A stretch of DNA of 33,844 nt from a virus (Duplodnaviria > Heunggongvirae > Uroviricota > Caudoviricetes), in the IMG/VR virus record IMGVR_UViG_3300029042_000248; one strand, written 5' to 3'. This document shows positions 1 through 33,844 of this stretch, in pieces. The position numbers and the translations under genes are program-made. Numbering within the stretch: the stretch's first letter is position 1; each line of letters starts with the position of its first letter. The notes under the pieces were generated by a model. That model did not search any database. It was not told where the DNA came from and was given only the letters and a program-made list of their open reading frames with translations.

Positions 1-525
1 TTATACAGCTTTCTTTACATCGTTTTCTCTTACAGGGAAATTATGTTCTTTGCCTTCATACTGAGACAAAATCTCTCTCACTTTTTCCGGTGGTAATGCC
101 TGAAGAGTTTGCAGGGTTTTCTGTTGCTCCACAGTAATCCCTAATGCCTCTAATGCCTTATCTTTACTGACAATTGTAGGCATAAGTCCTTTAATCCCTG
201 CTACACGAATGATCTCCACAGCTGCGGCCTGCTCATCTGGTGTTAAGAAGCTCATTGCATAAATTAGCCTCTCATCAACTGTATGGGCGATTGATGTATG
301 CACTGGTTTATCAGAAAGTGAGGCTCCTTTAATGGCCCTGCGTGTTTCTTCTGGCAGACTGTTGATGTGATACTCATAAGCGACACCTTTCCCACCGTGA
401 CGCTGACGTTTTACCCAATCTTCCGCCACAGCTTTCCTGGTAATGTTAGTCGCCAACTTTGGTACACCAGGCATCCCTTCCAGCTCTTTCGCATTAAACC
501 ATTCTTTGATTTCAAAAGACATCAT
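1..525 (-). CDS. c: Immunity repressor c (174 aa, D108-type)
   Basis: Leftward ORF diverging from ner across the operator region; its N-terminus ([26 protein letters not shown]) parallels the N-terminus of the transposase ORF at 940 ([26 protein letters not shown]), the known repressor/transposase shared DNA-binding domain; length matches my recollection of D108 c. Confidence 0.85.
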   Translation of the reverse strand: MMSFEIKEWFNAKELEGMPGVPKLATNITRKAVAEDWVKRQRHGGKGVAYEYHINSLPEETRRAIKGASLSDKPVHTSIAHTVDERLIYAMSFLTPDEQAAAVEIIRVAGIKGLMPTIVSKDKALEALGITVEQQKTLQTLQALPPEKVREILSQYEGKEHNFPVRENDVKKAV

Positions 526-710
526 TTAAAATCCTAGTGATTTCAATAGAGACAAAATAAATTCATATAAAAATCATGCCGTTATATGAAATCATGGCAA
601 ATCCTTTCAAATCACTGTTGATTTGGAAGTGATTCCACACTACATTGCACGATATGCCGTGAGCTACTTTATAGCGTAGCTCACGGGGGAATCTGAAAGG
701 ATTACATGAA
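526..710. promoter_or_regulatory. Operator/divergent promoter region (Pc/Pe, repressor operators; also expected to act as the transposition enhancer)
   Basis: 185-bp AT-rich gap between divergent c and ner with several inverted repeats (e.g. aatcactgttgatt); function inferred from Mu biology. Confidence 0.6.
657..686. promoter_or_regulatory. Perfect 11-bp inverted repeat CCGTGAGCTAC-N8-GTAGCTCACGG; candidate Ner operator
   Basis: Arms 657-667 and 676-686 are exact reverse complements with an AT-rich 8-bp spacer, about 25 bp upstream of ner; matches my recollection of the D108 ner operator architecture. Confidence 0.55.
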
Positions 711-932
711 ATGCATATGAATAAAAGAACTAACCGCCAAGATTGGCACAGAGCTGACATCGTTGCAGAGCTACGAAAACGCAATATGTCACTAGCTGAA
801 TTGGGAAGATCTAATCATCTTTCGTCTTCAACATTAAAAAATGCTTTGGATAAGAGATATCCGAAAGCGGAGAAAATCATTGCAGATGCACTGGGAATGA
901 CACCGCAAGATATTTGGCCGTCTCGATACTAG
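711..932 (+). CDS. ner: Ner-family early transcriptional regulator (73 aa)
   Basis: Small HTH protein ([23 protein letters not shown]...IWPSRY) directly upstream of transposase A; alternative start at 717. Confidence 0.85.
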
Positions 933-939
933 GTGCGCT

Positions 940-2928
940 ATGAAAGAATGGTATACAGCAAAAGAGTTGCTCGGTTTGGCAGGTTTACCAAAGCAAGCAA
1001 CTAACATTACACGTAAGGCACAAAGAGAAGGCTGGGAGTTCAGGCAGGTTGCAGGGACTAAAGGTGTATCATTTGAATTCAATATCAAATCATTCCCTGT
1101 CGCATTACGTGCTGAAATTCTGTTGCAACAAGGGAGAATTGAAACCAGTCAGGGGTATTTTGAAATCGCCCGCCCCACGCTGGAAGCCCATGATTATGAT
1201 CGTGAGGCACTGTGGAGCAAATGGGATAACGCCAGCGATTCCCAGCGCAGACTTGCTGAAAAATGGTTGCCTGCGGTTCAGGCTGCAGACGAAATGCTGA
1301 ACCAGGGGATTTCAACGAAAACGGCATTTGCGACCGTTGCAGGACATTACCAGGTCAGCGCATCCACTTTGCGAGACAAATATTACCAGGTACAGAAGTT
1401 TGCGAAGCCTGACTGGGCGGCTGCGCTTGTTGATGGACGTGGTGCATCCCGTCGCAACGTTCACAAAAGTGAATTTGACGAGGATGCCTGGCAGTTTCTG
1501 ATTGCAGATTATCTGCGACCAGAAAAACCCGCCTTTCGCAAATGTTATGAGCGTCTGGAACTGGCAGCCCGCGAGCATGGCTGGAGTATTCCCTCCCGTG
1601 CCACGGCCTTTCGCCGGATTCAGCAACTGGACGAGGCAATGGTTGTTGCCTGCCGTGAAGGTGAACATGCACTGATGCATCTGATACCGGCACAGCAGCG
1701 AACTGTGGAACACCTGGACGCCATGCAGTGGATCAACGGCGACGGTTATCTGCATAACGTCTTTGTACGCTGGTTTAACGGTGATGTGATCCGCCCGAAA
1801 ACATGGTTCTGGCAGGATGTGAAAACCCGAAAAATTCTGGGCTGGCGCTGCGATGTGAGCGAGAACATTGATTCAATTCGCCTCTCGTTCATGGATGTTG
1901 TGACTCGCTACGGTATTCCAGAGGATTTTCACATCACCATTGATAACACCCGTGGTGCTGCGAATAAATGGCTGACGGGAGGCGCGCCCAATCGCTACCG
2001 CTTTAAGGTAAAAGAGGACGATCCAAAGGGAGTGTTTTTACTGATGGGTGCGAAAATGCACTGGACAAGCGTTGTTGCCGGTAAAGGCTGGGGCCAGGCA
2101 AAACCTGTTGAACGTGCTTTCGGTGTTGGTGGGCTTGAGGAATACGTTGATAAGCATCCGGCACTGGCTGGCGCATATACGGGGCCAAATCCGCAGGCAA
2201 AACCTGATAACTATGGCGACCGCGCTGTTGATGCAGAGCTGTTTCTGAAAACCCTTGCCGAAGGTGTGGCGATGTTCAATGCCAGAACAGGCCGTGAAAC
2301 AGAAATGTGCGGGGGCAAACTCTCGTTTGATGATGTTTTCGAGCGTGAATACGCCAGAACGATTGTGCGTAAGCCAACCGAAGAACAAAAACGGATGCTG
2401 TTACTGCCTGCCGAGGCGGTGAACGTTTCACGCAAAGGCGAGTTTACGCTTAAAGTTGGCGGCTCCCTTAAAGGCGCGAAAAACGTTTATTACAACATGG
2501 CGTTAATGAATGCCGGAGTGAAAAAAGTTGTGGTCAGATTTGATCCACAACAGCTACACAGCACGGTTTATTGCTACACCCTGGACGGTCGGTTTATCTG
2601 TGAAGCGGAATGTCTGGCACCTGTTGCGTTTAATGATGCTGCGGCAGGCCGTGAATATCGCCGCCGCCAGAAACAACTGAAATCTGCAACTAAAGCAGCC
2701 ATTAAGGCGCAGAAACAAATGGACGCGCTGGAAATTGCTGAACTGCTGCCGCAGATAACCGAACCAACAGCACCAGAATCAAGGGTTGTTGGTATTTTCC
2801 GGCCTTCCGGTAACACGGTGCAGGTGAAATACCAGGACCTCGATGATGAATATGAAACTGATCGTGATGAATATCTGAATCATTCGCTGGATATTCTGGA
2901 ACAGAACAGACGTAAAAAAGCCATTTAA
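940..2928 (+). CDS. A: Transposase A (MuA-type DDE transposase, 662 aa)
   Basis: Length and position; candidate DDE residues in [16 protein letters not shown] and PVERAF contexts; N-terminal enhancer-binding domain homologous to repressor c. Confidence 0.95.
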
Positions 2929-2966
2929 TTAACGTTTAAACAAAATTTAATTACGAGGTTATTCAG

Positions 2967-3905
2967 ATGAATATTTCCGATATTCGCGCAGGACTGCGCA
3001 CGCTTGTAGAAAGTGAAAAAGCTACTTATGCACAAATTGCCCGCGAGTCCGGCGTGGCCGCAGGAACGTTAAGCGCATTCGTGAATAACAAGTACAACGG
3101 CGACAATGAACGTGTTGCGCAGACGCTGGAACGCTGGCTGGAGAACTATCACCGTGCCGCAGAGCTGCCAGAACCACCGCGTTTTGTGGAAACCAGAACA
3201 GCACGCCAAATCTGGACGAGTATGCGTTTTGCCAGTCTGACTGAAAGTATTTCTGTTATCTGCGGTAATCCAGGTGTGGGAAAAACTGAAGCGGCCCGCG
3301 AATTTCGTCGCACCAATAACAATGTCTGGATGATCACCATTACCCCATCCTGTGCCAGTGTTCTGGAATGCCTGACGGAACTGGCTTATGAACTGGGGAT
3401 GAATGACGCACCGCGCCGCAAGGGGCCACTCTCCCGCGCTTTGAGACGCCGCCTTGAAGGTACGCAGGGGTTGGTCATTATCGATGAAGCTGATCATCTT
3501 GGCGCTGAGGTTCTGGAAGAACTCCGCCTGTTACAGGAATCCGCCCGTATTGGCCTTGTTCTGATGGGGAATCACCGTGTTTATTCAAACATGACCGGTG
3601 GTAACAGAACGGTTGAATTTGCCCGCCTGTTTTCCCGTATTGCCAAACGGACGGCAATTAATAAAACCAAAATTGATGATGTAAAAGCCATTGCGGATGC
3701 CTGGCAAATTACCGGCGAAAACGAGCGGGAATTATTACAGCAGATTGCACAAAAACCAGGTGCGCTTCGCATCCTGAACCACTCGCTGCGCCTTGCGGCC
3801 ATGACCGCCCACGGCAAAGGTGAACGTGTTAATGAAGATTATCTGCGTCAGGCTTTCCGTGAATTAGACCTCGACGTTGATATTTCAACCCTGCTGCGCA
3901 CGTAA
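2967..3905 (+). CDS. B: Transposition ATPase / target DNA activator B (312 aa)
   Basis: Walker A GNPGVGKT and Walker B LVIIDEAD motifs; position immediately after A; 312 aa as in MuB. Confidence 0.95.
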
Positions 3906-3918
3906 GGAGAGCGAAATC

Positions 3919-4146
3919 ATGATGTCACGGAATATCAAAATGGCAACGGAAGTAAAGAGCTGGTTACAGGAGCGCGGCAGCCACGTCAACGAATCCTGGC
4001 TGGGCGTGGCCCGCCCGGTGCTTGAAATTACCTGCCCGCCACCGGAGCTGGTCAGAAACGCTGTCAGGATTATGGAGCATAAATCAGGGGTTGCCCGTTC
4101 CGTATGGACGGCCCGCCTTAATGGTTGCCAGATTATCTGGCGTTAA
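3919..4146 (+). CDS. Small early protein in the kil position (75 aa); possible Kil-like host division inhibitor
   Basis: First ORF after B with GGAG RBS and ATGATG start; assignment by position only. Confidence 0.4.
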
Positions 4147-4178
4147 TAACGGCTTATTTATTTGTGAGGAATAACAAA

Positions 4179-4448
4179 ATGGCAAAAGTAATCTTTGAAT
4201 TTAACCGCATGGAAGATGTTGAGTTTCAGAAAAAAGGAGGTTTCTTTGTAGGAATGAGTGTGCAACTGGAAGAACAGTCTCCTAAGGAGCAAACCGGACC
4301 GCATGACGTGATGGCAGGCATTATCAAGAGCATGGCTCCTGAAATTATTGAAAAAGCAACCCAGGAGTTGTTGAAGTCAGCCAGAGAACTTGGGCTGGAA
4401 GCCGAAGGCGAGTTATTCCGGTATAACCCGGATGCAGCCAAACATTAA
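4179..4448 (+). CDS. Hypothetical early protein (89 aa)
   Basis: ORF with upstream GAGGAA; starts MAKVIFEF; no recognisable motif. Confidence 0.4.
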   Translation: MAKVIFEFNRMEDVEFQKKGGFFVGMSVQLEEQSPKEQTGPHDVMAGIIKSMAPEIIEKATQELLKSARELGLEAEGELFRYNPDAAKH

Positions 4449-4464
4449 TTTCAGGGAAGGAGGC

Positions 4465-4755
4465 ATGATGATAATCACTCGCAAAAGATGGTCACGCGAA
4501 GACCGGGAATTTATCGAAGCCAGTGTCGGGAAAATGACCGTCGAGGAAATGGCGAAAAAACTGAACGTTGCCCCAACCGCCCTACAGGCACATGCCAGAA
4601 GGCACGGAATATCGTTGTGTGCATACCGGGTCAGTGAGCACGACAAATATTTGTGTCGTGAACTTTATAAAGAAGGGCTGGCTATTCATGTCATTGCCCA
4701 AAAGATGGAATTAAGCAATCGTGCTGTATCCAGCATTGTATACAGCGAATATTAA
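4465..4755 (+). CDS. Hypothetical early protein with HTH-like segments (96 aa)
   Basis: GAAGGAGG RBS then ATGATG; HTH-like segments (TVEEMAKKLNVAPTALQAHARRHG and LAIHVIAQKMELSNRAVSSIV). Confidence 0.4.
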   Translation: MMIITRKRWSREDREFIEASVGKMTVEEMAKKLNVAPTALQAHARRHGISLCAYRVSEHDKYLCRELYKEGLAIHVIAQKMELSNRAVSSIVYSEY

Positions 4756-4775
4756 TTAACAGGAGCTTTATTTAT

Positions 4776-5300
4776 ATGGCTAAACCAGCAAAACGAATCA
4801 AGAATGCCGCAGCGGCTTATGTTCCACAGTCCCGCGATGCCGTGGTATGTGATATCCGCCGGATTGGTGACCTGCAACGCGAAGCGGCACGACTTGAAAC
4901 GGAAATGAATGACGCTATCGCTGAAATTACAGAGAAATACGCCTCACAGATTGCGCCGCTAAAAACCAGTATCGAAACCCTTTCAAAAGGCGTTCAGGGA
5001 TGGTGTGAAGCGAACCGCGACGAACTGACGAACGGCGGCAAGGTGAAGACGGCGAACCTGGTAACCGGCGATGTGTCATGGCGTCAGCGCCCACCATCGG
5101 TAAGTATTCGCGGTGTGGATGCGGTGATGGAAACGCTGGAGCGTCTTGGCCTGCAACGCTTTATTCGTACGAAACAGGAAATCAACAAGGAAGCGATTTT
5201 ACTGGAACCGAAAGCGGTCGCAGGTGTCGCCGGAATTACAGTTAAATCAGGCATTGAGGATTTTTCTATTATTCCGTTTGAACAGGAAGCCGGTATTTAA
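4776..5300 (+). CDS. gam: Gam (host-nuclease inhibitor / DNA-end binding protein, 174 aa)
   Basis: Length equals Mu Gam as I recall it, position after kil-region ORFs, coiled-coil-rich sequence. Confidence 0.8.
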   Translation: MAKPAKRIKNAAAAYVPQSRDAVVCDIRRIGDLQREAARLETEMNDAIAEITEKYASQIAPLKTSIETLSKGVQGWCEANRDELTNGGKVKTANLVTGDVSWRQRPPSVSIRGVDAVMETLERLGLQRFIRTKQEINKEAILLEPKAVAGVAGITVKSGIEDFSIIPFEQEAGI

Positions 5301-5397
5301 TACCACTACAAATATTTAATTAATCCACTCTCTTTTAATTATGGCGCGATGCGTCAGGGGATTGCTCGCGCCTTATTCGACCATAAAGGATATTTAA

Positions 5398-5949
5398 ATG
5401 ACGAAATACGCCTATTTTAAGCTGTCTGATAAGACAAGCCGTATGTATATGAAACGCTGGGAGACAGATATTTATCCGGTTCGTGTAAAGCTTGTTCGTT
5501 CATTACAACGCGAACTTGGTGCTGCTGGCATCAGTCTTGTCAGAGGTCTGAAAGTTGCACGAGTGGAAAGCGTCTGGTTCGGGATGCAGCCGTCGGGGTT
5601 CTGGAAAGTAAAAAGCAGTAACCTTTTTGTTGATGGTTACCAGTTCTGGGAGGTTATGCCGGATGTAACGACAGTTCGGGGAAAAAAGAGAGAAAAGCTC
5701 ATCGCGGGATATGAAGAACAACTGACAAATTACCCTGAATTTTCAGTATGGCTGTGTAACGAACTGAATATTGATTTCACACTGAATATCTTTGATATCC
5801 GGTCTGTGTGGGAAATGTCATGGTCACGCGATAGGTTCAGCATTTTATTTAAAGTCCAGGTTTTTTCTGACGGTGAAGTGCATGGGCATATTCCTGCTGA
5901 ATGCCAGCGTATTAAACATTCTGAATTTGTGGCGCTGACGGAGGAATAA
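5398..5949 (+). CDS. Hypothetical protein (183 aa), AT-rich accessory cluster
   Basis: Long ORF in a markedly AT-rich segment; no recognisable motif. Confidence 0.5.
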   Translation: MTKYAYFKLSDKTSRMYMKRWETDIYPVRVKLVRSLQRELGAAGISLVRGLKVARVESVWFGMQPSGFWKVKSSNLFVDGYQFWEVMPDVTTVRGKKREKLIAGYEEQLTNYPEFSVWLCNELNIDFTLNIFDIRSVWEMSWSRDRFSILFKVQVFSDGEVHGHIPAECQRIKHSEFVALTEE

Positions 5950-5952
5950 CCG

Positions 5953-6186
5953 ATGTTTGTGATTGACTCAAAAGTTTTGAATGCTGTCAGCACATTACTA
6001 CGAACTCACGGACGTCTGACCTGTGGTGTTCTGGCGGACAAAATGAGAATGCCAGTCTCTGCAATGGTGTACTTCCTGCGTGATGCGGTTGATGCCGGAG
6101 TGCTCACCGAATGTAACGGATTTTATGACATCCCACGCTCCCGACCGACTCCGGCGGAAACACAGGAAATCAGCGAGCATGATTAA
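5953..6186 (+). CDS. Hypothetical small protein, possible winged-helix (77 aa)
   Basis: ORF 4 nt after the previous gene; helix-rich, winged-helix-like by eye only. Confidence 0.4.
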   Translation: MFVIDSKVLNAVSTLLRTHGRLTCGVLADKMRMPVSAMVYFLRDAVDAGVLTECNGFYDIPRSRPTPAETQEISEHD

Positions 6187-6376
6187 GTCACTTGGCTTTG
6201 TCCTGCTGGTTGGCACCTGTGGGAATGATGCCTGCGATGCCATTCCGGTAACGGAAAAAATCTGGCCCACAGAACAGGCATGTATGCAGGTGATGGAGCG
6301 CATACAAAAACGTTATCCCGGTGAAATCTTTTATTGCGAAGAGGTATTAAGAAATGAAAATACAGATGATTACTGA
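6179..6376 (+). CDS. Hypothetical small Cys-containing protein with hydrophobic N-terminus (65 aa)
   Basis: In-frame ATG at 6179 overlapping previous stop (ATGATTAA); MIKSLGFVLLVGTCGNDACD then two more Cys; possible signal peptide, imperfect lipobox. Confidence 0.35.
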   Translation: MIKSLGFVLLVGTCGNDACDAIPVTEKIWPTEQACMQVMERIQKRYPGEIFYCEEVLRNENTDDY

Positions 6377-6689
6377 TGCTGATTTAATGGCTGCAACCTT
6401 AATTTCCAGTGGCATGTCAGAACAAAAGGTAAATGATTTTCTGGATAATGTCGTATACCAACGCTATGAGCAGGCCAGAGAAAATTTAATTTCAGAAAAA
6501 CGCACGATGATTGCCGAATCATTAAGCCCAGCCTGGATTATTGAGGAATTACGAAAAATCACTGCCAGCCAGGATAAAGTAGCGGCAGTTGCCGCCCTCG
6601 ATGTGCTACAGCGAATGAGTAAAGAGCTATTCAACACTGAATTAATTTTTAAATCCGGGGGACAAAATGAGTCGCACATCGCTTATTAA
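6354..6689 (+). CDS. Hypothetical protein (111 aa)
   Basis: AT-rich ORF overlapping gemA start; no recognisable motif. Confidence 0.45.
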   Translation: MKIQMITDADLMAATLISSGMSEQKVNDFLDNVVYQRYEQARENLISEKRTMIAESLSPAWIIEELRKITASQDKVAAVAALDVLQRMSKELFNTELIFKSGGQNESHIAY

Positions 6690-7218
6690 GTTAATTCATG
6701 TCGCCCGTCGTGATCTACAACTCGACGATGACACTTACCGCGCCTTTCTGGTGCAGTGCACGGGCAAAACCAGTTGCCGCGAGCTGTCCGTTGCACAACT
6801 GGAACAAGTGCTCGATGCCATGAAAGAGCGCGGTTTTAAAAAGCAGAATAAACATCCCCGCCGTCGCTTTAAGGGGCATGTCACACCGCGCGAGAAGATT
6901 TATAAAATCTGGCAGCAGATGTTTCTTGATGGTTTCGTCTCCGATATCAGCGACGCTGCGCTGGACAAATACGTTGAACGCCTGACGGCCAGACGTAATG
7001 GCGGTCAGGGTGTTTCCACGCTGGCCTGGTGTCACGGGGAATCGTTGCAGGTTGTGCTCGAAACGCTCAAACAGTGGCATATGCGCTGCATCCGTGAAGC
7101 CTTTGCCCGACATGGTGTGCCTTTACCTGTAAGCCCATCCGGGCGGGAACTGCGCGGCTATGATGCACTGACCAGTGCATATGCCCGCGCACGAAACAGC
7201 GGGAGAATTGCTGTATGA
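6667..7218 (+). CDS. gemA: GemA-like protein (183 aa)
   Basis: Size matches Mu GemA as I recall it; immediately upstream of and translationally coupled (ATGA) to the Mor-family gene. Confidence 0.7.
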   Translation: MSRTSLIKLIHVARRDLQLDDDTYRAFLVQCTGKTSCRELSVAQLEQVLDAMKERGFKKQNKHPRRRFKGHVTPREKIYKIWQQMFLDGFVSDISDAALDKYVERLTARRNGGQGVSTLAWCHGESLQVVLETLKQWHMRCIREAFARHGVPLPVSPSGRELRGYDALTSAYARARNSGRIAV

Positions 7219-7664
7219 AACAGATGAAAGAGCAGGATTTATTCGAAGACTTCCGGGACGACAGCGTTCTGGAATACCTTAACGATTACCAGGAAAACAC
7301 GGCTTATCCGGCGTTACTTTCTGAACTGAACGCACTGCTGCGTAAAGAACTGGCCCGGATTGGCGCAGACCCTGCCCATTCCCTTGAGCTGGTTGTGGCG
7401 ATTTGTCGCCATATCGGCGGGATGCAGGTTTATGTTCCGAGGGGGAATATTCTGGAGAATCTTGTCCGGGATATGCGTATCTGGCGTGATTTTAACGGCC
7501 ATAATATTCCTGAACTGGTTCAGCGTTACAGAGTGACGTATAAAACCGTCTACAAGGCCATCAAACGGATGCGGCGTCTGGAGCGTAATAAATACCAGCC
7601 GGATTTGTTCTACCACTCCCCGAACCTGCCTCACCCCGTTCGTCGTCCGCCACGACGCCCTTAA
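7215..7664 (+). CDS. mor: Mor/C-family transcriptional activator (149 aa)
   Basis: C-terminal region GGMQVYVPRGNILENLVRDMRIWRDFNGHNIPELVQRYRVTYKTVYKAIKRMR typical of the Mor/C family; position after gemA. Confidence 0.8.
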   Translation: MKQMKEQDLFEDFRDDSVLEYLNDYQENTAYPALLSELNALLRKELARIGADPAHSLELVVAICRHIGGMQVYVPRGNILENLVRDMRIWRDFNGHNIPELVQRYRVTYKTVYKAIKRMRRLERNKYQPDLFYHSPNLPHPVRRPPRRP

Positions 7665-7668
7665 TCAA

Positions 7669-7694
7669 TGAAGCCGGTAAATCCGGCTTTTTTT
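7669..7694 (+). terminator. Palindrome+T7 element, copy 1 (tgaAGCCGGtaaatCCGGCTttttttt): candidate intrinsic terminator and/or activator-binding site of a late promoter
   Basis: 7-bp stem, 5-nt loop, then 7 T; the identical 26-mer recurs at 15382-15407. Confidence 0.6.
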
Positions 7695-7749
7695 ATGCCT
7701 CCGGCACCATGAAGCAGACCACGTTTAAATCTGCTTCACAGGTGCTTTT

Positions 7750-8346
7750 ATGGAAAATCAAAAATTCTCCCCGGCCTTTGAACATGCGCTGAATTTTATT
7801 CTGCGTCCTGATATCGAAGGCGGCTATGTCAATGACCCCACTGACCGTGGCGGCGAAACAAAATACGGCATTTCTGACCGCCGCGACGGTGTGATTGACG
7901 GCAAAACCGATGTCAACGGCGACGGCAAACCAGATACCCGCATTAAGGATTTGACCCGCGAACAGGTTGCGCAGATTTACTGGCGCGATTACTGGCTGCT
8001 TGCCGGGTGTGATCAGTGGCCTGATGGTGTGGCGCTCTTTGTGTTTGATGCGGCTGTTCAGCATGGCGTGGAGCAAGCCGTCAAGTTTTTACAGGAAGCC
8101 GCTGATGTGTCTGCCGATGGCATCATCGGCCCGCGTACCCGCAAGGCTGTGAGCCTGTCCACCCCGGACTGGCTGCTGTCCCGCTGCATTGTTCGCCGTT
8201 GCCGCTTTTATGCGGGCCTCATCAAATCAAAACCCGCTCGTGGCAAATACCTGAACGGCTGGTTTAACCGCATGGAAGAACTGACCGACGCCTGTCTGGA
8301 AATCATCGATACCCCTCTGGGCATCATGTCCGCCACGCGGGGGTGA
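7750..8346 (+). CDS. Endolysin, glycoside hydrolase family 108-like with C-terminal peptidoglycan-binding region (198 aa)
   Basis: N-terminal motif FEHALNFILRPDIEGGYVNDPTDRGGETKYGIS characteristic of GH108 lysins; no N-terminal TM/SAR segment. Confidence 0.75.
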   Translation: MENQKFSPAFEHALNFILRPDIEGGYVNDPTDRGGETKYGISDRRDGVIDGKTDVNGDGKPDTRIKDLTREQVAQIYWRDYWLLAGCDQWPDGVALFVFDAAVQHGVEQAVKFLQEAADVSADGIIGPRTRKAVSLSTPDWLLSRCIVRRCRFYAGLIKSKPARGKYLNGWFNRMEELTDACLEIIDTPLGIMSATRG

Positions 8347-8347
8347 T

Positions 8348-8575
8348 ATGGGCAAAGGCTGGGACGCCTCACTGAAAGCCGGGCGGCGTGACCGCCTGCG
8401 CCAGGAGGTTCTGCACCGCATGGCCGGAGGTCCGCCCCCGAAACCGCTGGACTATACCGGCCATGATGGCACACACGCCAGCTACTACATGCGTGGCTGG
8501 AACTCCGTGGATACACGGGACATTTTCTGGCAGTGCCAGAAGTACAAGGAAAAACTCAATGCACAGAATGAATAG
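8348..8575 (+). CDS. Hypothetical small protein (75 aa)
   Basis: ORF starting 2 nt after the endolysin stop; no motif recognised. Confidence 0.4.
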   Translation: MGKGWDASLKAGRRDRLRQEVLHRMAGGPPPKPLDYTGHDGTHASYYMRGWNSVDTRDIFWQCQKYKEKLNAQNE

Positions 8576-8969
8576 TCTTTTTGTTCGCGTTATTTACTCC
8601 CGCTTTATGTTGTGCCAGTGGTCGTTTCTGGGACTGTCGGCAGTACTTTTTCTGGCGAGCTGTTTTGCCGGATGGCGGGCGTTTGCGGTCATGGTGCTGG
8701 CATACGGCGCGACACTCTGCCTGATTCACAGTTTCCAGCTGGGCAACGTACCTTATCGCCTGCAGCCCAAAAGGCGTTTCCGGGCCGCCTCCCTTCGAAT
8801 TGTCGTGTGGTCATGGGTGGTCTGGGCCGTTGGTTTTTTCATGCTGACATTCGGCATTCTTTATCTGAAGGAGCCTTATCAGCTGGCGTTCTGGCTGGGC
8901 GGTATTTTTTGCGCGGCACTTTATAAACATCAGCGCCGTTTTCATAAGGGGGATTCATGGATCCGTTAA
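8559..8969 (+). CDS. Hypothetical integral membrane protein, ~4 predicted TM segments (137 aa)
   Basis: In-frame ATG at 8559 (alt 8568) within listed ORF 8388-8969; four long hydrophobic stretches. Confidence 0.5.
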   Translation: MHRMNSLFVRVIYSRFMLCQWSFLGLSAVLFLASCFAGWRAFAVMVLAYGATLCLIHSFQLGNVPYRLQPKRRFRAASLRIVVWSWVVWAVGFFMLTFGILYLKEPYQLAFWLGGIFCAALYKHQRRFHKGDSWIR

Positions 8970-9565
8970 CCCTTTCAGGCATCGCCTCTGTTCTGCTGAA
9001 AGCCGGGCCGGGGCTGATTCGTTCCGTCGGGCGCTGGTTTGGTGGCAGTACATCTGCCGCCGCTGACTCGGTGGCCGGTATGGTGGAAAGCGTCCGGGAA
9101 AGCCTGCCGGTGGCTGAACAGCAGCGCGTTCTGGAACAAAAGCTGGTGATGTTGTCACCGGAACAACTGATGCAACTGGAAACCCTGAAAGTGCAGTTGC
9201 AACAACTGGCGGTGGAACGGCAGAAGCTGGTGCTGGCTGACCAGCAGGCTTCGCACCACGAACAGCAGGAAACCATCCGCAATGGTGACAACGCCACGGA
9301 CAGCTATGTGCGCCAGACGCGCCCGCTGCTGGCGCGCCTTTCCTGTTACAGCAGTCTGGCCTATGTGCTGTTGCTCTCCTGCGGCCAGATTGCCGGAGCC
9401 ATTGCCGGTGCCAGCGGTATCACGCTGCATATGCCATCACCGGACTGGGATATCACGCTGATGTTGCTTACCCCGGCACTGGGCTATCTCGGCGTAAGAA
9501 CCGTTGACGGTTTTGCCCGTTACAGCAAGTCAAGCAAGGACAAAATATCTGCGGGGCCGAAATGA
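8957..9565 (+). CDS. Hypothetical coiled-coil protein with hydrophobic C-terminal segments (202 aa); possible lysis or membrane-associated function
   Basis: Central Q/L-rich coiled coil, C-terminal hydrophobic stretches. Confidence 0.4.
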   Translation: MDPLTLSGIASVLLKAGPGLIRSVGRWFGGSTSAAADSVAGMVESVRESLPVAEQQRVLEQKLVMLSPEQLMQLETLKVQLQQLAVERQKLVLADQQASHHEQQETIRNGDNATDSYVRQTRPLLARLSCYSSLAYVLLLSCGQIAGAIAGASGITLHMPSPDWDITLMLLTPALGYLGVRTVDGFARYSKSSKDKISAGPK

Positions 9566-9789
9566 CCGACGAAATCGACCGCATCAGTGAAGTGGTTCTG
9601 AACGAACGTCAGAGCGTCGTTAAAGCCTGGCAGACACGGACAAAAGAAGCGCCCCACAGCCGGGGCTTCTGCAATGACTGCGGGAACGTTATTCCGGCAC
9701 AGCGCCTTGCGGCGCTGCCGGATGTGGTGACCTGTATTGACTGTCAGCAGATACGGGAACACAGGAGGAAATCGTGTCCTGGGAAATGA
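9562..9789 (+). CDS. TraR/DksA-family C4 zinc-finger protein (75 aa)
   Basis: CNDCGNVIPAQRLAALPDVVTCIDCQ = C-x2-C-x17-C-x2-C. Confidence 0.75.
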   Translation: MTDEIDRISEVVLNERQSVVKAWQTRTKEAPHSRGFCNDCGNVIPAQRLAALPDVVTCIDCQQIREHRRKSCPGK

Positions 9790-12918: not shown

Positions 12919-14486
12919 ACCTGAAACAACTGGCCGGGGCCGTTCGCCGTCTGCTGAACCCGGCAACCGGTGAGGAAGACACGCTGAAAAAAGAGGCGCT
13001 CAACGAAGCACAGGCCCGTCCGCGTCATGCCGGTGTGCGTTCGGCCTCGCCGGGTATCAGCGTCGCCTCCGGGCTGAACCCCGGCAGGCTGGCAGGCATT
13101 CTGCGCAATGCTACTGACGGCATCACGCGTGATTTTTTTATCCTTGCTGAAGAGATGGAAGAACGCGATTTGCATTACGCCTCGGTACTGCGCACCCGCA
13201 AGCTGACGGTGGCGGGTATCGAACCGGTGGTGGTGGCCGCCAGTGATGACGATGCTGACGTGCAACTGGCGGACGCCATCCGTGCACTGATGGAGGCACC
13301 GCAAATCCCTGAGCTGATGTTTGATCTGCTCGACGGGCTGGGAAAAGGCGTGGCGGTCTGTGAAATTTTGTGGAACACCCGCAACAACCACTGGGTGCCC
13401 CGTGATTATGAGTGGGTTGATCCCCGTTTTCTGAAAGCTGAAAAGCCCACGCTGCGTCAGTTCCGCCTGCTGACGGACGATGAACCGGTGGATGGCGTAC
13501 CGCTGACACCGGGAAAATTCATTGTTCACCAGCCGCGTCTGAAATCCGGTCTGCCGCTGCGTAATGGTCTGGCCCGTCTGGTGGCGGTGATGTACATGCT
13601 GAAATCCTTTACCGTGCGCGACTGGTGGGCATTTGCGGAAAAATTCGGCATTCCGGTTACGGTGGGGAAATACGGTCCCAACGCCACGGAGGAGCAAATC
13701 CGCGTGCTGATTGATGCGATTGCCTCCATTGCCTCGGATGCCGGGTGTGCTATTCCGCAGTCCATGCAACTGGAGATGAAGGAAACCGCCAGCAGGAATA
13801 ACGGCGGCGCACTGTTCCGTGAAATGGCGGAATGGTGCGATGCGCAAATCAGTAAAGCCGTGCTGGGGCAGACCATGACCACGGATAACGGCAGTTCGCG
13901 TTCACAGGCGGACGTGCACAATCAGGTGCGCATGGACATTGTGCGCTGGGACGCGCGGCAACTGGCTAACACGCTGAATGAATATCTGGTACGCCCCTAC
14001 ATTGAGGCCAACTACGGGCCACAGGCGCACTACCCCCGTGTTGTTCTGCGTATCAGTGAAGCGGAAGATTTGAAGGCGCTGACAGACGCTCTGGTGCCAC
14101 TGATTGACCGGGGGATGCGGGTTCAGGAATCGGAGCTGCGGGACCGGTTCGGCCTGGCTGAACCGGACGACGGGGCTGATGTTCTGCATCCGGTGTCTGC
14201 CGGAATGTCAGGTGATGTGGCGATGAACCGCGAGCGCGTCGCCCTGAACCGGGAACACCCCGATGAACTGGCACAGATGGTGGATGATGCCCTGCGTGAC
14301 TGGCAGAAAACCGGCGAGGCGTTCACGAACCCGGTGCTGACACTGGCGCAGGAATGCGACAGTTTTGATGACTTTCTGAAACGCCTGCCTGAGCTTCAGG
14401 AAACGCTGAACGCGGACGACTTTGCCCTGCAACTGGCGGAGGTGTGCTTTAAGGCGCGTGCGCTGGGGGACACTGCTCATGCGTGA
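12915..14486 (+). CDS. H: Portal protein, Mu gp29-like (523 aa)
   Basis: Size and position between terminase and F-like gene. Confidence 0.8.
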   Translation: MNLKQLAGAVRRLLNPATGEEDTLKKEALNEAQARPRHAGVRSASPGISVASGLNPGRLAGILRNATDGITRDFFILAEEMEERDLHYASVLRTRKLTVAGIEPVVVAASDDDADVQLADAIRALMEAPQIPELMFDLLDGLGKGVAVCEILWNTRNNHWVPRDYEWVDPRFLKAEKPTLRQFRLLTDDEPVDGVPLTPGKFIVHQPRLKSGLPLRNGLARLVAVMYMLKSFTVRDWWAFAEKFGIPVTVGKYGPNATEEQIRVLIDAIASIASDAGCAIPQSMQLEMKETASRNNGGALFREMAEWCDAQISKAVLGQTMTTDNGSSRSQADVHNQVRMDIVRWDARQLANTLNEYLVRPYIEANYGPQAHYPRVVLRISEAEDLKALTDALVPLIDRGMRVQESELRDRFGLAEPDDGADVLHPVSAGMSGDVAMNRERVALNREHPDELAQMVDDALRDWQKTGEAFTNPVLTLAQECDSFDDFLKRLPELQETLNADDFALQLAEVCFKARALGDTAHA

Positions 14487-15243
14487 AACCCTCATCCCGA
14501 AAGAGGCGCTGGCGTGGCTGAAGGCGAAGAAGCTGCGCCCCGGTTTTGATTACCGGGATGTATGGCGGGAAGAGCACCGGAACAGCTTCACCGTGGCAAA
14601 AATGCTGCAACTGGATTTGTTGTCGGATGTGAAAGCCCTTGTGGAAGACGCCCTGCAAAGCGGGCAGACGTTCAGCGAGTTCCGGGAGGCGCTGCAACCG
14701 CTGCTGATAAAACGCGGATGGTGGGGCGTTCAGGAGATGGATGATCCGCTGACGGGCGAAAGGCGCACCGTGCAACTGGGCAGCGACCGCCGCCTCCGCA
14801 CGATTTTTGATACCAACATGCGCACCGCCCGCGCGGCGGGCCAGTGGGAACGCATTCAGCGGACAAAGCGGGCCATGCCGTATCTGATTTACGAGCTGGG
14901 ACCATCCCGCGAGCACCGGGCGGAGCATGTGAAATGGGCGCGTCTGTGTCTGCCGGTAGATCATCCGTTCTGGCAGACGCATTTCGCCCCTAACGGCTGG
15001 GGCTGCAAATGCACCATCCGTCAGGTCAGCCGTGGTGAATATGCGCAACTGGCGGCACAGGGCACCATTCACACCGAAGCGCCGGAAATCAGAACTGTCC
15101 GCTGGGTGAACAAACGCACGGGCGAAGAGGAAGAGGTGCCGGAAGGGATTGATCCGGGCTGGAACTACAATCCCGGTATAAACCGTGAGCAGGAGCTGGC
15201 ACGCCAGCTGGCGACAAAACAGGCCCGTTTTGACAGTGAGTAA
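14479..15243 (+). CDS. F: Head morphogenesis protein, Mu F-like (254 aa from ATG 14479)
   Basis: In-frame ATG at 14479 overlapping the portal stop; conserved region HVKWARLCLPVDHPFWQTHFAPNGWGCKCTIRQVSR resembles the Mu F family. Confidence 0.75.
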   Translation: MRETLIPKEALAWLKAKKLRPGFDYRDVWREEHRNSFTVAKMLQLDLLSDVKALVEDALQSGQTFSEFREALQPLLIKRGWWGVQEMDDPLTGERRTVQLGSDRRLRTIFDTNMRTARAAGQWERIQRTKRAMPYLIYELGPSREHRAEHVKWARLCLPVDHPFWQTHFAPNGWGCKCTIRQVSRGEYAQLAAQGTIHTEAPEIRTVRWVNKRTGEEEEVPEGIDPGWNYNPGINREQELARQLATKQARFDSE

Positions 15244-15271
15244 CCCTCCCGCCGTAAATCCCCCTGAAACG

Positions 15272-15299
15272 CATCAGAAACGCGTTTTTTATTCTGATG
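15272..15299 (+). other. Hairpin (8-bp stem catcagaa/ttctgatg) in the F-I intergenic region
   Basis: Exact reverse-complement arms 15272-15279 and 15292-15299; loop contains ACGCGT. Confidence 0.5.
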
Positions 15300-15319
15300 G
15301 CGTGAATGTGCATTCTGAC

Positions 15320-15360
15320 GTTTTTGAAGATGCTGTGGCGTTTTTGAAGGGGTTTTGAAG
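15320..15360 (+). repeat. Three direct copies of GTTTT(T)GAAG in the F-I intergenic region
   Basis: gtttttgaag at 15320-15329 and 15340-15349, gttttgaag at 15352-15360. Confidence 0.6.
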
Positions 15361-15381
15361 GGGGTATTTCCCCGTTTTCAG

Positions 15382-15407
15382 TGAAGCCGGTAAATCCGGC
15401 TTTTTTT
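15382..15407 (+). terminator. Palindrome+T7 element, copy 2 (identical 26-mer to 7669-7694)
   Basis: Exact repeat of tgaagccggtaaatccggcttttttt; followed by TGCCTTCCGCA (copy 1 has TGCCTCCGGCA). Confidence 0.6.
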
Positions 15408-15456
15408 CTGCCTTCCGCATACTGACCGTCGGTAACCCCAAACGACGGAGACTGAC

Positions 15457-16419
15457 ATGCAACCGGAACTGCTGGCGCTGTGTTTTTCCCTGCCAGAACC
15501 CATCCCTGAGCTGACACCTGCTCAACTGCCGGAATGGCTTGAACTCGTCCCTGCGGGTGAGTTCACCGGGCGCGATGGCCGGACGTGGATTAACCGCAAT
15601 CCGCATGAGGTGGTCACCCGCTCGTCCGACATCAAAATTCCGGTGGACATTGAACACGCCACCGAAATTAAAGGGCAACGCGGTGATGAAGCCCCGGCGT
15701 ATGGCTGGGTGGAAGAACTGCGCGTGACGGACAGCGGCACCATTGAAGGCCGTGTTGTCTGGAGCGAGTACGCCCGGTGGATGCTGAGCGAACGCCGCTA
15801 CCGCTATTACAGCCCGGCGTTTTTCTTTGACGCAGACGGTGTGGTGACGCGCCTGTCCAGCGTCGGGCTGACCAACAAACCTAACCTGGACTTTCCTGCA
15901 CTGAATACGGAGAAAAACCCGATGACAGTACCTGTGCAAATCACCGGCCTGCTTGGGCTGGCTGAATCTGCCACGGTGGACGATACCGTGGCCGCCATTA
16001 AACAACTTCAGGAGAACGAACAGGTGGCGCTGAACCGCGCACAGACACCTGACCTGACGAAGTTTGTGCCGGTGGAAACCCACAATCTGGCACTGAACCG
16101 TGCCGAAACCGCAGAACAACGCCTTCAGCAACTGGAAGAGAAGGAAGCAGAAGCGCTTGTGGATGCGGCCATCGAAGCCGGAAAAGTGGCCCCGGCAAAC
16201 CGTGACATGTTCCTTGCCACCTGCCGCACGGAAGAAGGCCGCAAACAGTTTGCGGAATACACCAAAGGTGCACAGCCGCTGGTGAACAACGACAAGCCCA
16301 GCCAGGGCAAGGATAAACCCGCGCAGACACTGACCGACGCCGAACTGGCGATGTGCCGCAGCATGGGTATTACCGGGGAAGAGTTCCTCGCCGCTAAACC
16401 TAAACAGGAGAATAACTGA
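15457..16419 (+). CDS. I: Head protease / scaffold protein, Mu I-like (320 aa)
   Basis: Position before the major head gene; C-terminal coiled-coil region; GGAG RBS 6 nt upstream. Confidence 0.75.
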   Translation: MQPELLALCFSLPEPIPELTPAQLPEWLELVPAGEFTGRDGRTWINRNPHEVVTRSSDIKIPVDIEHATEIKGQRGDEAPAYGWVEELRVTDSGTIEGRVVWSEYARWMLSERRYRYYSPAFFFDADGVVTRLSSVGLTNKPNLDFPALNTEKNPMTVPVQITGLLGLAESATVDDTVAAIKQLQENEQVALNRAQTPDLTKFVPVETHNLALNRAETAEQRLQQLEEKEAEALVDAAIEAGKVAPANRDMFLATCRTEEGRKQFAEYTKGAQPLVNNDKPSQGKDKPAQTLTDAELAMCRSMGITGEEFLAAKPKQENN

Positions 16420-17714: not shown

Positions 17715-18151
17715 TGGGGTACATCACGCAGGAAGACCTGTTACGCGCAGACGGCAATCTTGTCTGGAACATGGCGATTAACCGGGAAACCAACGGACTG
17801 GATGAAGACAAAATCCGTCAGGCCATCAGTGATGCCGAAGCGGAAATTGATTCGTTTCTGTCCCGCCGCTACCAGCTGCCGCTGGGGGTGACGGAAATCC
17901 CGCGCCCGCTGCAACGCGTGGCGGTATCGCTGGCGTTTTACTGGTTGTCAGAGCGTGACAATCAAATCACGGAGCTGATCCAGAAACGCTACGACGACGC
18001 CATTAAAACCCTGCGTGAGATGGCGAACGGCACCCGTGACCTGGGACTGCCGACGTATGCCACCCCGGCAGAAACCGACCACGGGAAAATCATTGTGGTG
18101 GGTGCCAATGCCCGGCTGTTCACCCGTAACAACCTGAAAGGGGTGCTGTGA
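17714..18151 (+). CDS. Head-tail joining / head completion protein, Mu gp36-like (145 aa)
   Basis: Position and size; coupled to neighbours. Confidence 0.5.
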   Translation: MGYITQEDLLRADGNLVWNMAINRETNGLDEDKIRQAISDAEAEIDSFLSRRYQLPLGVTEIPRPLQRVAVSLAFYWLSERDNQITELIQKRYDDAIKTLREMANGTRDLGLPTYATPAETDHGKIIVVGANARLFTRNNLKGVL

Positions 18152-25992: not shown

Positions 25993-26519
25993 ACGCCATT
26001 GCCCGCCGTCTGCGGCTGCTGGTTGATCGTGCCGTTGTCCGCATGGTGTCTGACAGTCTGGAGCGGCAGAACCTGCAAATCCAGACGCTGGCAGATGCCA
26101 CTGACGACGACGTGGAACGCTTCCAGAACTACGGGTTTACTTCCGTTCCGCCGGAAGGTTCTGAAGCCATTGTGCTGGCCGTTGGCGGACGGCGTGACGG
26201 GCTGGTTGCCATCGCGGTGGAGGACAAGCGATGTCGCCCGAAAGGACTGTCCCCCGGCGATGTCCGGCTTTATCACCGGGACGGCAAATCACACATCACC
26301 CTGAAGGAAAACGGCGTCATTGAAATCACAGGAGAACAATTAAACGTTTCAGGGAAAACGGTAAATCTCACCGCCGACGAATTGCTGAATATTATCGGTA
26401 AACAAATGAAATTCGTCGGTCCCTGTGAATTTACTGAAGATGTCAGAATTAACGGTAAATCATTCAGCGAACACATTCATAAGGACGGCGACAATGAGAA
26501 TACATCACCGCCCGTATGA
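25983..26519 (+). CDS. Q: Baseplate spike / assembly protein, Mu gp45-like (178 aa from ATG 25983)
   Basis: In-frame ATG at 25983 overlapping the P stop; the track ORF 25707-26519 runs upstream only because no stop intervenes. Confidence 0.7.
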   Translation: MGLNAIARRLRLLVDRAVVRMVSDSLERQNLQIQTLADATDDDVERFQNYGFTSVPPEGSEAIVLAVGGRRDGLVAIAVEDKRCRPKGLSPGDVRLYHRDGKSHITLKENGVIEITGEQLNVSGKTVNLTADELLNIIGKQMKFVGPCEFTEDVRINGKSFSEHIHKDGDNENTSPPV

Positions 26520-33260: not shown

Positions 33261-33844
33261 CATGAAAATCAGAGCGGTAAAGGGCATCAGAAACGCCCAT
33301 TATCTCGAAAATGGTGCGGTTGACTGCGAGGTGTTATTTGAAGGTGAAAGGGAATTCGTCCCGTATACCGCCATGCAGGATGATACCGCAATGACAGGCC
33401 AGCGCATCTGGNNNNNNNNNNNNNNNNNNNNNNGGTGAAATCGCCCCGTTCACCGTCACGCCTGAACTTATCGCAGCGGCAAAAGATGCCAAAAAGATGG
33501 AAATCGAGGCGTGGCGCACAGAACAGGAAGCGCAGCCGTTCACGTTCGAATGGAACGGACACACCTGGAACGCCGGCCCCGACTCACTCGCCCGTCTTTA
33601 TCCGGCAGTAATGGCATCAAAGTCTGACACAGCGCGAAAAACCATGGTATGGGGCGATGCGGAAAACCAGCAGGTGAAACTGTCGATGCAGAAACTGGAT
33701 GAGCTGCTTACTGCAATGGTGCAGGCACAGGTCGATCGCAACGATGAGATTTATCGTCTCCAGCGAGAGATGAAGCAAGAGCTGAATAACATGGAGGATT
33801 TGGTTTCAATCAGGAAACTGGTCGTTAGCCCAGAAAAAACTTGA
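33261..33844 (+). CDS. Second tail-fibre chaperone-like gene, interrupted by a 22-nt N run (33412-33433)
   Basis: ATG 33261 with upstream GAGGAAATAAGG; continues after the N run in the frame of track ORF 33497-33844, ending exactly at the window end; frame across the gap is unverifiable. Confidence 0.4.

Follow-up and report, generated by a model that had tools for sequence, protein, structure and literature searches.

The window (the whole stretch of DNA analyzed here, 33,844 nucleotides) is a nearly complete Mu-like prophage in which one 26-bp element precedes each of two late operons (Table 1). The first copy, site 1, lies between mor and the endolysin gene, such that the lysis gene comes directly after mor in this phage, and the genes that follow the endolysin are, in order, gp27-like, TerL, portal and F (14422-15243). 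The second copy, site 2, lies in the 213-nt gap between F and the protease/scaffold gene I, downstream of which the major head protein T is followed by tail and baseplate genes. The mor-to-lysis junction was matched in at least 50 of 5426 complete E. coli genomes, with full-length matches being 95-98% identical. Near the right end of the window, 22 N in a row (33412-33433) represent masked sequence or an assembly gap.

Table 1. Coordinates of genes, terminator hairpins and predicted promoter elements in the window.
Feature	Position	Strand	Basis or remark
GemA	6667-7218		
mor orthologue, sole Mor/C-family activator gene in the window	7215-7664	+	Pfam Mor 1.4e-30
Site 1 Mor box AATGA-AGCCGG-TAAAT (AATGAAGCCGGTAAAT), predicted -51 to -36	7667-7682	+	register with Mu Pm; PWM 28.8 bits
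Site 1 predicted intrinsic terminator: stem GAAGCCGG/CCGGCTTT, loop TAAAT, T7	7670-7694	+	terminator scan, fold
Site 1 spacer 11-mer TGCCTCCGGCA, -22 to -12	7696-7706	+	G(-21) and C(-19) invariant in 28 unique post-mor sites
Site 1 predicted -10 CACCAT	7705-7710	+	register of Mu Pm TATCCT; predicted start ~7718
GH108 endolysin, first gene of the site 1 operon	7750-8346	+	Pfam GH108 3.4e-24 and PG_binding_3
Site 2 Mor box AGTGA-AGCCGG-TAAAT (AGTGAAGCCGGTAAAT), predicted -51 to -36	15380-15395	+	PWM 29.5 bits
Site 2 hairpin and T7, probable terminator of the lysis-to-F operon	15383-15407	+	terminator scan, fold
Site 2 spacer 11-mer TGCCTTCCGCA	15409-15419	+	9/11 identical to site 1
Site 2 predicted -10 CATACT	15418-15423	+	register of site 1 and Mu Pm; predicted start ~15431
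Mu-like protease/scaffold I, first gene of the site 2 operon	15457-16419	+	Pfam Mu-like_Pro 1.9e-44
Candidate third Mor promoter: box AGGGAAAACGGTAAAT (26351-26366), -10 TATTAT (26390-26395)	26351-26395	+	PWM 20.1 bits

By sequence, the product of 7215-7664 is a Mor orthologue rather than a C orthologue, being 61% identical to Mu Mor and 32% identical to Mu C, with an HTH (VTYKTVYKAIKRMRRL) that is near-invariant across relatives and close to that of Mu Mor (VTFNTVYKAIRRMRRL). Searching the 33.8-kb window by tblastn with Mu C, Mu Mor and the window's own Mor for a second Mor/C gene returned 7215-7664 only, and by this search a C gene is absent from the window. The Mor/C-type activator invoked in an earlier, preliminary description of this DNA is thus encoded here in its Mor form and not in its C form. 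The window's Mor also carries a Pro/Arg-rich 17-residue C-terminal tail (YHSPNLPHPVRRPPRRP; 7611-7661) that is missing in Mu Mor and most other alleles. A Pfam scan of the lysis-operon ORFs for other DNA-binding activators yielded only a TraR/DksA zinc-finger protein; this 75-aa C4-type protein (9562-9789, + strand; Pfam 1.2e-11), encoded within the lysis/packaging operon, could modulate RNA polymerase in late development.

A repeated element with a predicted terminator fold

The 26-mer, TGAAGCCGGTAAATCCGGCTTTTTTT, was read directly from the sequence and recovered by pattern search exactly twice in the window, at 7669-7694 and 15382-15407. Its AGCCGGTAAATCCGGCTTTTTTT portion occupies 7672-7694 and 15385-15407 with 0 mismatches, and a shared TGA prefix completes the exact repeat. 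Two matches arose in none of 100 dinucleotide-preserving shuffles, even when 3 mismatches were allowed (mean 0.01), and two exact copies in the window are far above chance expectation. From the end of the 26-mer to the next ATG there are 55 nt at site 1 (7695-7749) and 49 nt at site 2 (15408-15456). The 11-mers that come after the repeat share 9 of 11 positions, and overall the likeness between the two sites reaches across ~52 nt, as TCA-N-TGAAGCCGGTAAATCCGGCTTTTTTT-N-TGCCT.C.GCA...TGA. The preliminary description had reported the two copies, their distances to the ATG codons and the kinship of the 11-mers, all of which were reproduced by our search and recount, and its gene calls beside the sites (Mor-like, endolysin, protease/scaffold) are upheld by Pfam.

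Two further searches bear on the general nature of the repeat. An Rfam search of the window gave no match at the gathering threshold, and a relaxed palindrome search (GCCGGN5CCGGC, 2 mismatches) was uninformative, with many matches in GC-rich coding sequence. We rejected a dispersed palindromic repeat of the REP/MITE type, in a test that covered the window and phage lineages: the window has only two exact copies, each of them at the start of an operon and on the + strand, and their positions are conserved across phage lineages.

As the preliminary description had proposed, the element can fold as an intrinsic terminator. In the hairpin, an 8-pair stem with 5 G-C pairs closes a 5-nt loop and leads into a U7 tail; the predicted energy in context is -12.6 kcal/mol (z = -2.9). 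A simple terminator scan reports it at both sites, where a GC-rich stem-loop with its U-tract lies at the end of a transcription unit. At site 1 the hairpin begins 6 nt past the mor stop codon, and its role as the predicted terminator of the early (mor) operon, where it would be needed, is firm. At site 2 it folds separately within the F-I intergenic RNA; there the predicted terminator is optional in the family, and probably serves in the E. coli lineage to shield the head operon from read-through.

The remainder of the F-I gap is also rich in structure. Two more terminator-like hairpins, at 15266-15295 (AAACGC...GCGTTTTTT, just after F) and 15360-15377 (GGGGGTATTTCCCCGTTTT), bring the gap to up to three hairpins in succession. 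Just 5' of site 2, at 15290-15381, repeated GTTTTTGAAG-like units align with the strong-gyrase-site region that Mu carries between G and I (gyrase cut site annotated at 17879/80), and the pattern TTAAACGCGCCACGG..TTTTT(A/G)AAC..GG..TTT(G/A)AACGG is common to Mu, Kp4866-3 and Kluyvera, such that the central gyrase site is probably conserved here.

The hairpin anatomy by itself would fit a reading in which both sites are intrinsic terminators only, with gene I reached by read-through or served by another promoter, and with the identity of the copies owed to duplication or gene conversion of a good terminator. The stem, loop and U7 are canonical, both copies sit at operon ends, and Vibrio and Pasteurellaceae relatives likewise have a terminator and then a promoter ahead of gene I, an arrangement that is also predicted for Mu. 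What speaks against this reading is the pattern of conservation described below, together with the relation of site 1 to a characterized promoter.

Register with the Mu middle promoter

According to the Mu GenBank record (AF083977), mor stops at 9170 and Pm, the middle promoter that Mor activates, spans 9163-9233, enclosing a TransTermHP terminator at 9179-9200. We found that AAAGCCGGTTAATCCGGCTTTTTTT sits within Mu Pm, immediately after mor, and that the Pm region (cagtAAAGCCGGTTAATCCGGCTTTTTTTacgtcctcaaTATCCTgtg) differs from the window element once in the loop and not at all in the stem or T7; Yersinia phage vB_YpM_5 and Klebsiella phage Kp4866-3 carry the hairpin-T7 element too. Site 1 is accordingly named here as what it is at the sequence level, a homologue of Mu Pm. 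The Mu hairpin after mor is presumably the early-transcript terminator t9.2. Elsewhere in Mu, a Mor-box-like GGCAAAGCCGGTAAATCC lies inside gp47 (L006, 30676-30693) and is found in YpM_5 as well.

Work from the Howe laboratory established that Mor binds a 16-bp element, consisting of two 5-bp inverted repeats with a G/C-rich hexamer between them, at -51 to -36 (centre -43.5), that the DNase I footprint of Mor alone spans -56 to -36, that in Mu Pm position -57 is G and -54 is A, and that the permanganate-reactive T residues of the bottom strand lie at -12, -4, -1, +1, +3 and +4. A later paper found bases just downstream of the Mor dyad to be critical as well, and according to a cryo-EM preprint region 4 of sigma-70 sits on a suboptimal -35 element that closely follows the Mor/C box. 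We derived the numbering of Mu Pm from the positions quoted in open-access Howe laboratory papers, and assigned +1 to 9224 because this is the only start that fits the published -57, -54, footprint and permanganate positions. The Mor element AGTAA-AGCCGG-TTAAT therefore occupies 9173-9188 and the -10 hexamer TATCCT 9211-9216, and the Mor site is thus the 5' flank, left arm and loop of the hairpin. By the same register, the right arm CCGGCT (-35 to -30) occupies the position expected of a -35 element, and the T7 (-30 to -24) forms the spacer.

Transferred to the window, this register predicts a Mor box at each site, matching the Mu element at the sequence level in 13 (site 1) and 14 (site 2) of 16 positions. 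The Mor-box PWM, built from the boxes of other lineages, was calibrated on 200 shuffled windows, with best scores per window of 10.7 bits on average, 15.8 at the 95th percentile and 20.2 at most, compared with the scores of the two boxes in Table 1. The predicted start sites and -10 hexamers of the window were assigned by register with Mu alone, giving predicted leaders of 32 nt at site 1 and 26 nt at site 2 (24 nt in Mu Pm). The -35 region reads CCGGCT, a scan for the sigma-70 consensus yields no complete promoter at site 1 or site 2, and the predicted -10 hexamers are weak, matching the consensus in 3/6 (CACCAT) and 4/6 (CATACT) positions, which is a point against a Mor promoter. At the sequence level, the sites combine what characterizes a Mor-type promoter, namely a 16-bp dyad in register, a -10 hexamer in the absence of a -35 hexamer or extended -10, and a cognate Mor gene.

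Inverted repeats are also present between the predicted -10 and the RBS, at 7711-7737 (GAAGCAGA...TCTGCTTC) and 15426-15447 (CCGTCG...CGACGG); relatives, as well as Mu Pm and PI, have repeats of other sequence at a like place, with the 5' arm at or before the predicted +1. Covariation in this interval was weak, and we set aside a conserved RNA structure as evidence: the pre-I stem owes its upkeep mostly to sequence conservation, with a single compensatory pair, and no consensus fold emerged for the pre-lysis leaders.

The preliminary description had suggested a combined terminator and activator-dependent promoter, in which GCCGG-N5-CCGGC would be the activator's dyad. The combined cassette is supported by the homology to Pm, with its predicted terminator inside the promoter, and by the retention of the box before gene I; the proposed dyad is not. 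By Mu numbering the Mor element would be A[AG]TGA-AGCCGG-TAAAT, with the right arm and T7 at -35 to -24, outside the footprint, and the GCCGG/CCGGC palindrome is best read as the terminator stem. The related 11-mer is no site of its own but coincides with the promoter spacer, and its last two bases (CA at site 1) open the -10 hexamer.

A third, hairpin-free candidate promoter was detected inside the gp45-like gene, upstream of the gp46-like gene. Its sequence at 26351-26368 is AGGGAAAACGGTAAATCT, and its score lies just below the shuffle maximum and above the 95th percentile; it has neither hairpin nor right arm, and the spacing from box to TATTAT is the same as in the pre-I sites of the Klebsiella type. 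Kp4866-3 has a homologous box (L005, 27153) with CATTAT in the same register, although this conservation is not decisive because the sequence is coding (GKTVN...IIGK), and a search for the box in diverged lineages among gp46-anchored viral loci returned near-identical E. coli relatives or very distant phages only. The 26351 site could be the counterpart of Mu PP, and its box probably drives the baseplate/tail-fibre operon.

Conservation of the box and of the hairpin in related prophages

We mapped Mor/C, lysis, F and I homologues in two sets of loci drawn from among the matches listed: 46 genomic loci anchored on the terminase, situated between sites 1 and 2, and 29 viral loci anchored on gene I. 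Each close relative carries one Mor/C-family gene and no more. In 38 of 38 loci, Mu and YpM_5 among them, mor is followed by the hairpin AAGCCGGU(A/U)AAUCCGGCUUU, at -10.9 kcal/mol and with at least 6/8 T in the tail. Before gene I, the 16-bp Mor box is found in all 36 C-less loci examined, and the C-bearing Mu and YpM_5 have no Mor box at this position.

The pre-I hairpin is far more variable, ranging across the same 36 loci from -10.9 to -0.3 kcal/mol with tails of 8/8 to 1/8 T. Hairpin and U-tract are intact in 21 loci (the E. coli group, Kluyvera L008 and Raoultella L018), 2 loci have a hairpin with no U-tract, and in the other 13 both features are degraded or missing. Related prophages, in which the preliminary description had suggested a search for the 26-mer, hence bear out the element fully after mor and in 21/36 loci only before gene I. 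Among the altered loci, Klebsiella/Raoultella sites have a mismatched stem (-0.3 to -4.4) and no T-run (GGAAAGCGGTTAATCCACTTTCTTCT), while L073-L081 retain an exact CAGTGAAGCCGGTTAATCC that is followed by ACCTGAGTCCCC and form no hairpin (-1.6 to -3.3; 1/8 T). In Pluralibacter L013 (AAACCGG/CCGGTTT, -8.5) and in L072 (AAGGCGG/CCGCCTT), both arms carry compensatory changes and the T-run is broken. Such upkeep of the palindrome may indicate that the hairpin or palindrome has value beyond simple termination.

Across 52 unique sites of both classes, the invariant columns are A(-51), GAA(-48 to -46), CGGT(-43 to -40), AAT(-38 to -36) and C(-35), all of them inside or just beside the Mor footprint, with the right arm and T7 invariant in the post-mor class only. 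Furthermore, a -10-like hexamer of the form xAxxxT follows the box after 23-24 nt in all lineages. Its variants are TATCCT, TATTCT, CACCAT, CACTAT, CAAAAT, CATGAT, CATACT, GACACT and CACACT; the A and T are kept in nearly all unique post-mor sites, and pre-I relatives have CATACT, GACACT or CACACT at the same 23-24 nt.

These data weigh against termination as the sole function. Although 15/36 pre-I loci have lost the stem or T-run, they keep the 5' flank, left arm, loop and CC exactly, whereas selection on a terminator would maintain pairing and the U-tract and not a single arm. Moreover, the conserved part coincides with the experimentally determined Mor footprint in Mu, the -10-like hexamer lies at a fixed distance, and site 1 is homologous to a proven promoter. 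We regard the terminators-only explanation as unlikely.

The same loci allow the palindrome to be judged as a possible binding site of a dimeric activator, with the ability to form a hairpin being incidental. The dyad is indeed perfect, the compensatory changes on both arms in L013 and L072 preserve it before gene I, and the cryo-EM preprint reports Mor/C tetramers on an extended site. However, both the Mor footprint (-56 to -36) and the dyad (-51 to -36) of Mu end at the loop and exclude the right arm. L073-L081 have another sequence in place of this arm and the Klebsiella group has stem mismatches, with the rest of the site conserved, and the third candidate box at 26351 occurs without a right arm. 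Such a role of the palindrome appears quite improbable to us.

A further possibility is that the element is a recombination scar or module boundary, a short conserved stretch used in module exchange among Mu-like phages, and that its site 2 copy lacks a regulatory role. Homology to the window starts exactly at the hairpin in several E. coli genomes (H31-H35), and in E. coli relatives an unchanging promoter cassette follows mor alleles of 73-100% identity. In E. coli ETEC1732 (L002), mor and the hairpin are separated by an additional hypothetical ORF of 165 aa (995-1492), the junction is mosaic, and homology to the window resumes exactly at the cassette, which is still joined to the lysis gene, as expected of the lysis gene's promoter. 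Yet boundaries of this kind are expected at promoters and terminators anyway, and a scar would leave unexplained the fixed -10 spacing, the conservation of the Mor-footprint half and the match to a characterized promoter, such that we give this possibility very little credence.

Within any one genome, sites 1 and 2 always carry the same loop variant, TAAAT or TTAAT. We found no support for co-evolution of the loop with Mor, as the genomes with either variant could not be told apart at any column of the Mor alignment and share an invariant HTH; the agreement more likely reflects ancestry or gene conversion than a change in Mor specificity.

Because of the homology to Mu Pm, the single Mor gene, the conservation pattern and the PWM scores, we consider it quite likely that both copies are Mor-dependent Pm-type promoters with an embedded intrinsic terminator. 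Mor binding, start sites and termination efficiency in this phage are inferred from homology and conservation.

A proposed two-tier cascade and its relation to known systems

In the mechanism that we propose, early transcription arriving via mor (site 1), or lysis/packaging transcription arriving via F (site 2), would meet the hairpin, and the RNA structure GAAGCCGG-UAAAU-CCGGCUUU with its U7 would bring about termination. In the DNA, Mor (7215-7664) would bind A[AG]TGA-AGCCGG-TAAAT, centred ~43.5 bp upstream of the start and composed of the 5' flank, left arm and loop of the same hairpin. It would recruit sigma-70 RNA polymerase to a weak -10 (CACCAT/CATACT) with no -35 hexamer, the right arm and T7 doubling as -35 region and spacer, and transcription would restart ~24 nt past the T-run, near 7718 and 15431. 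Because the phage is without C, Mor would switch on the lysis/packaging and head operons directly, in a two-tier cascade compared with the three tiers of Mu.

Extending this scheme, we lean towards a history in which the C-less enterobacterial Mu-like clade went from three tiers to two and placed a Pm-type Mor box before every late operon (lysis/packaging, head and probably baseplate/tail fibre), with the E. coli lineage copying the whole cassette to the head operon, such that each late operon would be both insulated and strictly Mor-gated. The terminator-within-promoter architecture and the Mor box are already known from Mu; in the literature that we searched, we found no description of cassette reuse at the head operon in C-less relatives, or of a two-tier cascade.

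This reading would explain the element almost base by base from the well-studied Mu Pm promoter, and predicts that in C-less Mu-like prophages, which are found in E. coli, Klebsiella, Kluyvera, Raoultella and Pluralibacter, Mor alone activates lysis and morphogenesis. Relatives that have a pre-I Mor box but no hairpin constitute a natural experiment separating the bases for activation from those for termination, as in a right-arm change of the L073 kind (CCGGCTTTTTTT to CCACCTGAGTCC). The 16-bp box with a -10 hexamer 23-24 nt later could be used for late-promoter annotation in this phage group, and the ~52-bp unit of terminator and inducible promoter is a possible insulating part for synthetic biology.

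Among known systems, the FluMu/SuMu-like prophages of Pasteurellaceae (L023, L027-L032) resemble the window in having one Mor/C-family gene, a shared motif that occurs directly behind the activator gene and again ahead of I, and a terminator hairpin just upstream of the pre-I copy. They differ from it in the motif itself (e.g. TCTGAAAC[AT]TCACAAACTCAC) and in an activator that is nearer C (40-46% identity), and terminator and box are adjacent in these prophages but interleaved in the window.

The late promoters Plys and PI of Mu occupy positions equivalent to those of the window sites, before the lysis gene and the protease/scaffold gene I, and share with them a weak -10, no -35 and an activator site at ~-43.5; a predicted terminator likewise lies upstream of PI. 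The mapped promoter PI, with CCTCCCG-CAAACT-GAC, resembles site 2 CCTTCCG-CATACT-GAC in its spacer and -10, and site 2 therefore looks like a PI core joined to a Mor box. However, Plys and PI depend on C, whereas the boxes of the window are Mor-type and a C gene is absent, and the upstream sequences of Plys and PI in Mu and YpM_5 differ from those of the window sites. On these grounds, and as tblastn with Mu C finds the mor locus only, we rejected a Mu-like C-dependent late promoter; in Mu, Mor and C have been reported not to cross-activate each other's promoters.

The closest counterpart is Mu Pm. Like site 1, it lies just after mor, has the core AAGCCGGT(T/A)AATCCGGCTTTTTTT in the same register to a weak -10 with no -35 hexamer, is served by a Mor with a near-identical HTH, and has its activator site overlapping a terminator hairpin. 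The left half-site reads A[AG]TGA in the window and AGTAA in Mu, and the loop TAAAT compared with TTAAT. The systems differ in what the promoter serves, as Pm drives a middle operon ending in C whereas the window cassette directly precedes the endolysin gene, and the window, unlike Mu, has a second, identical cassette before gene I.
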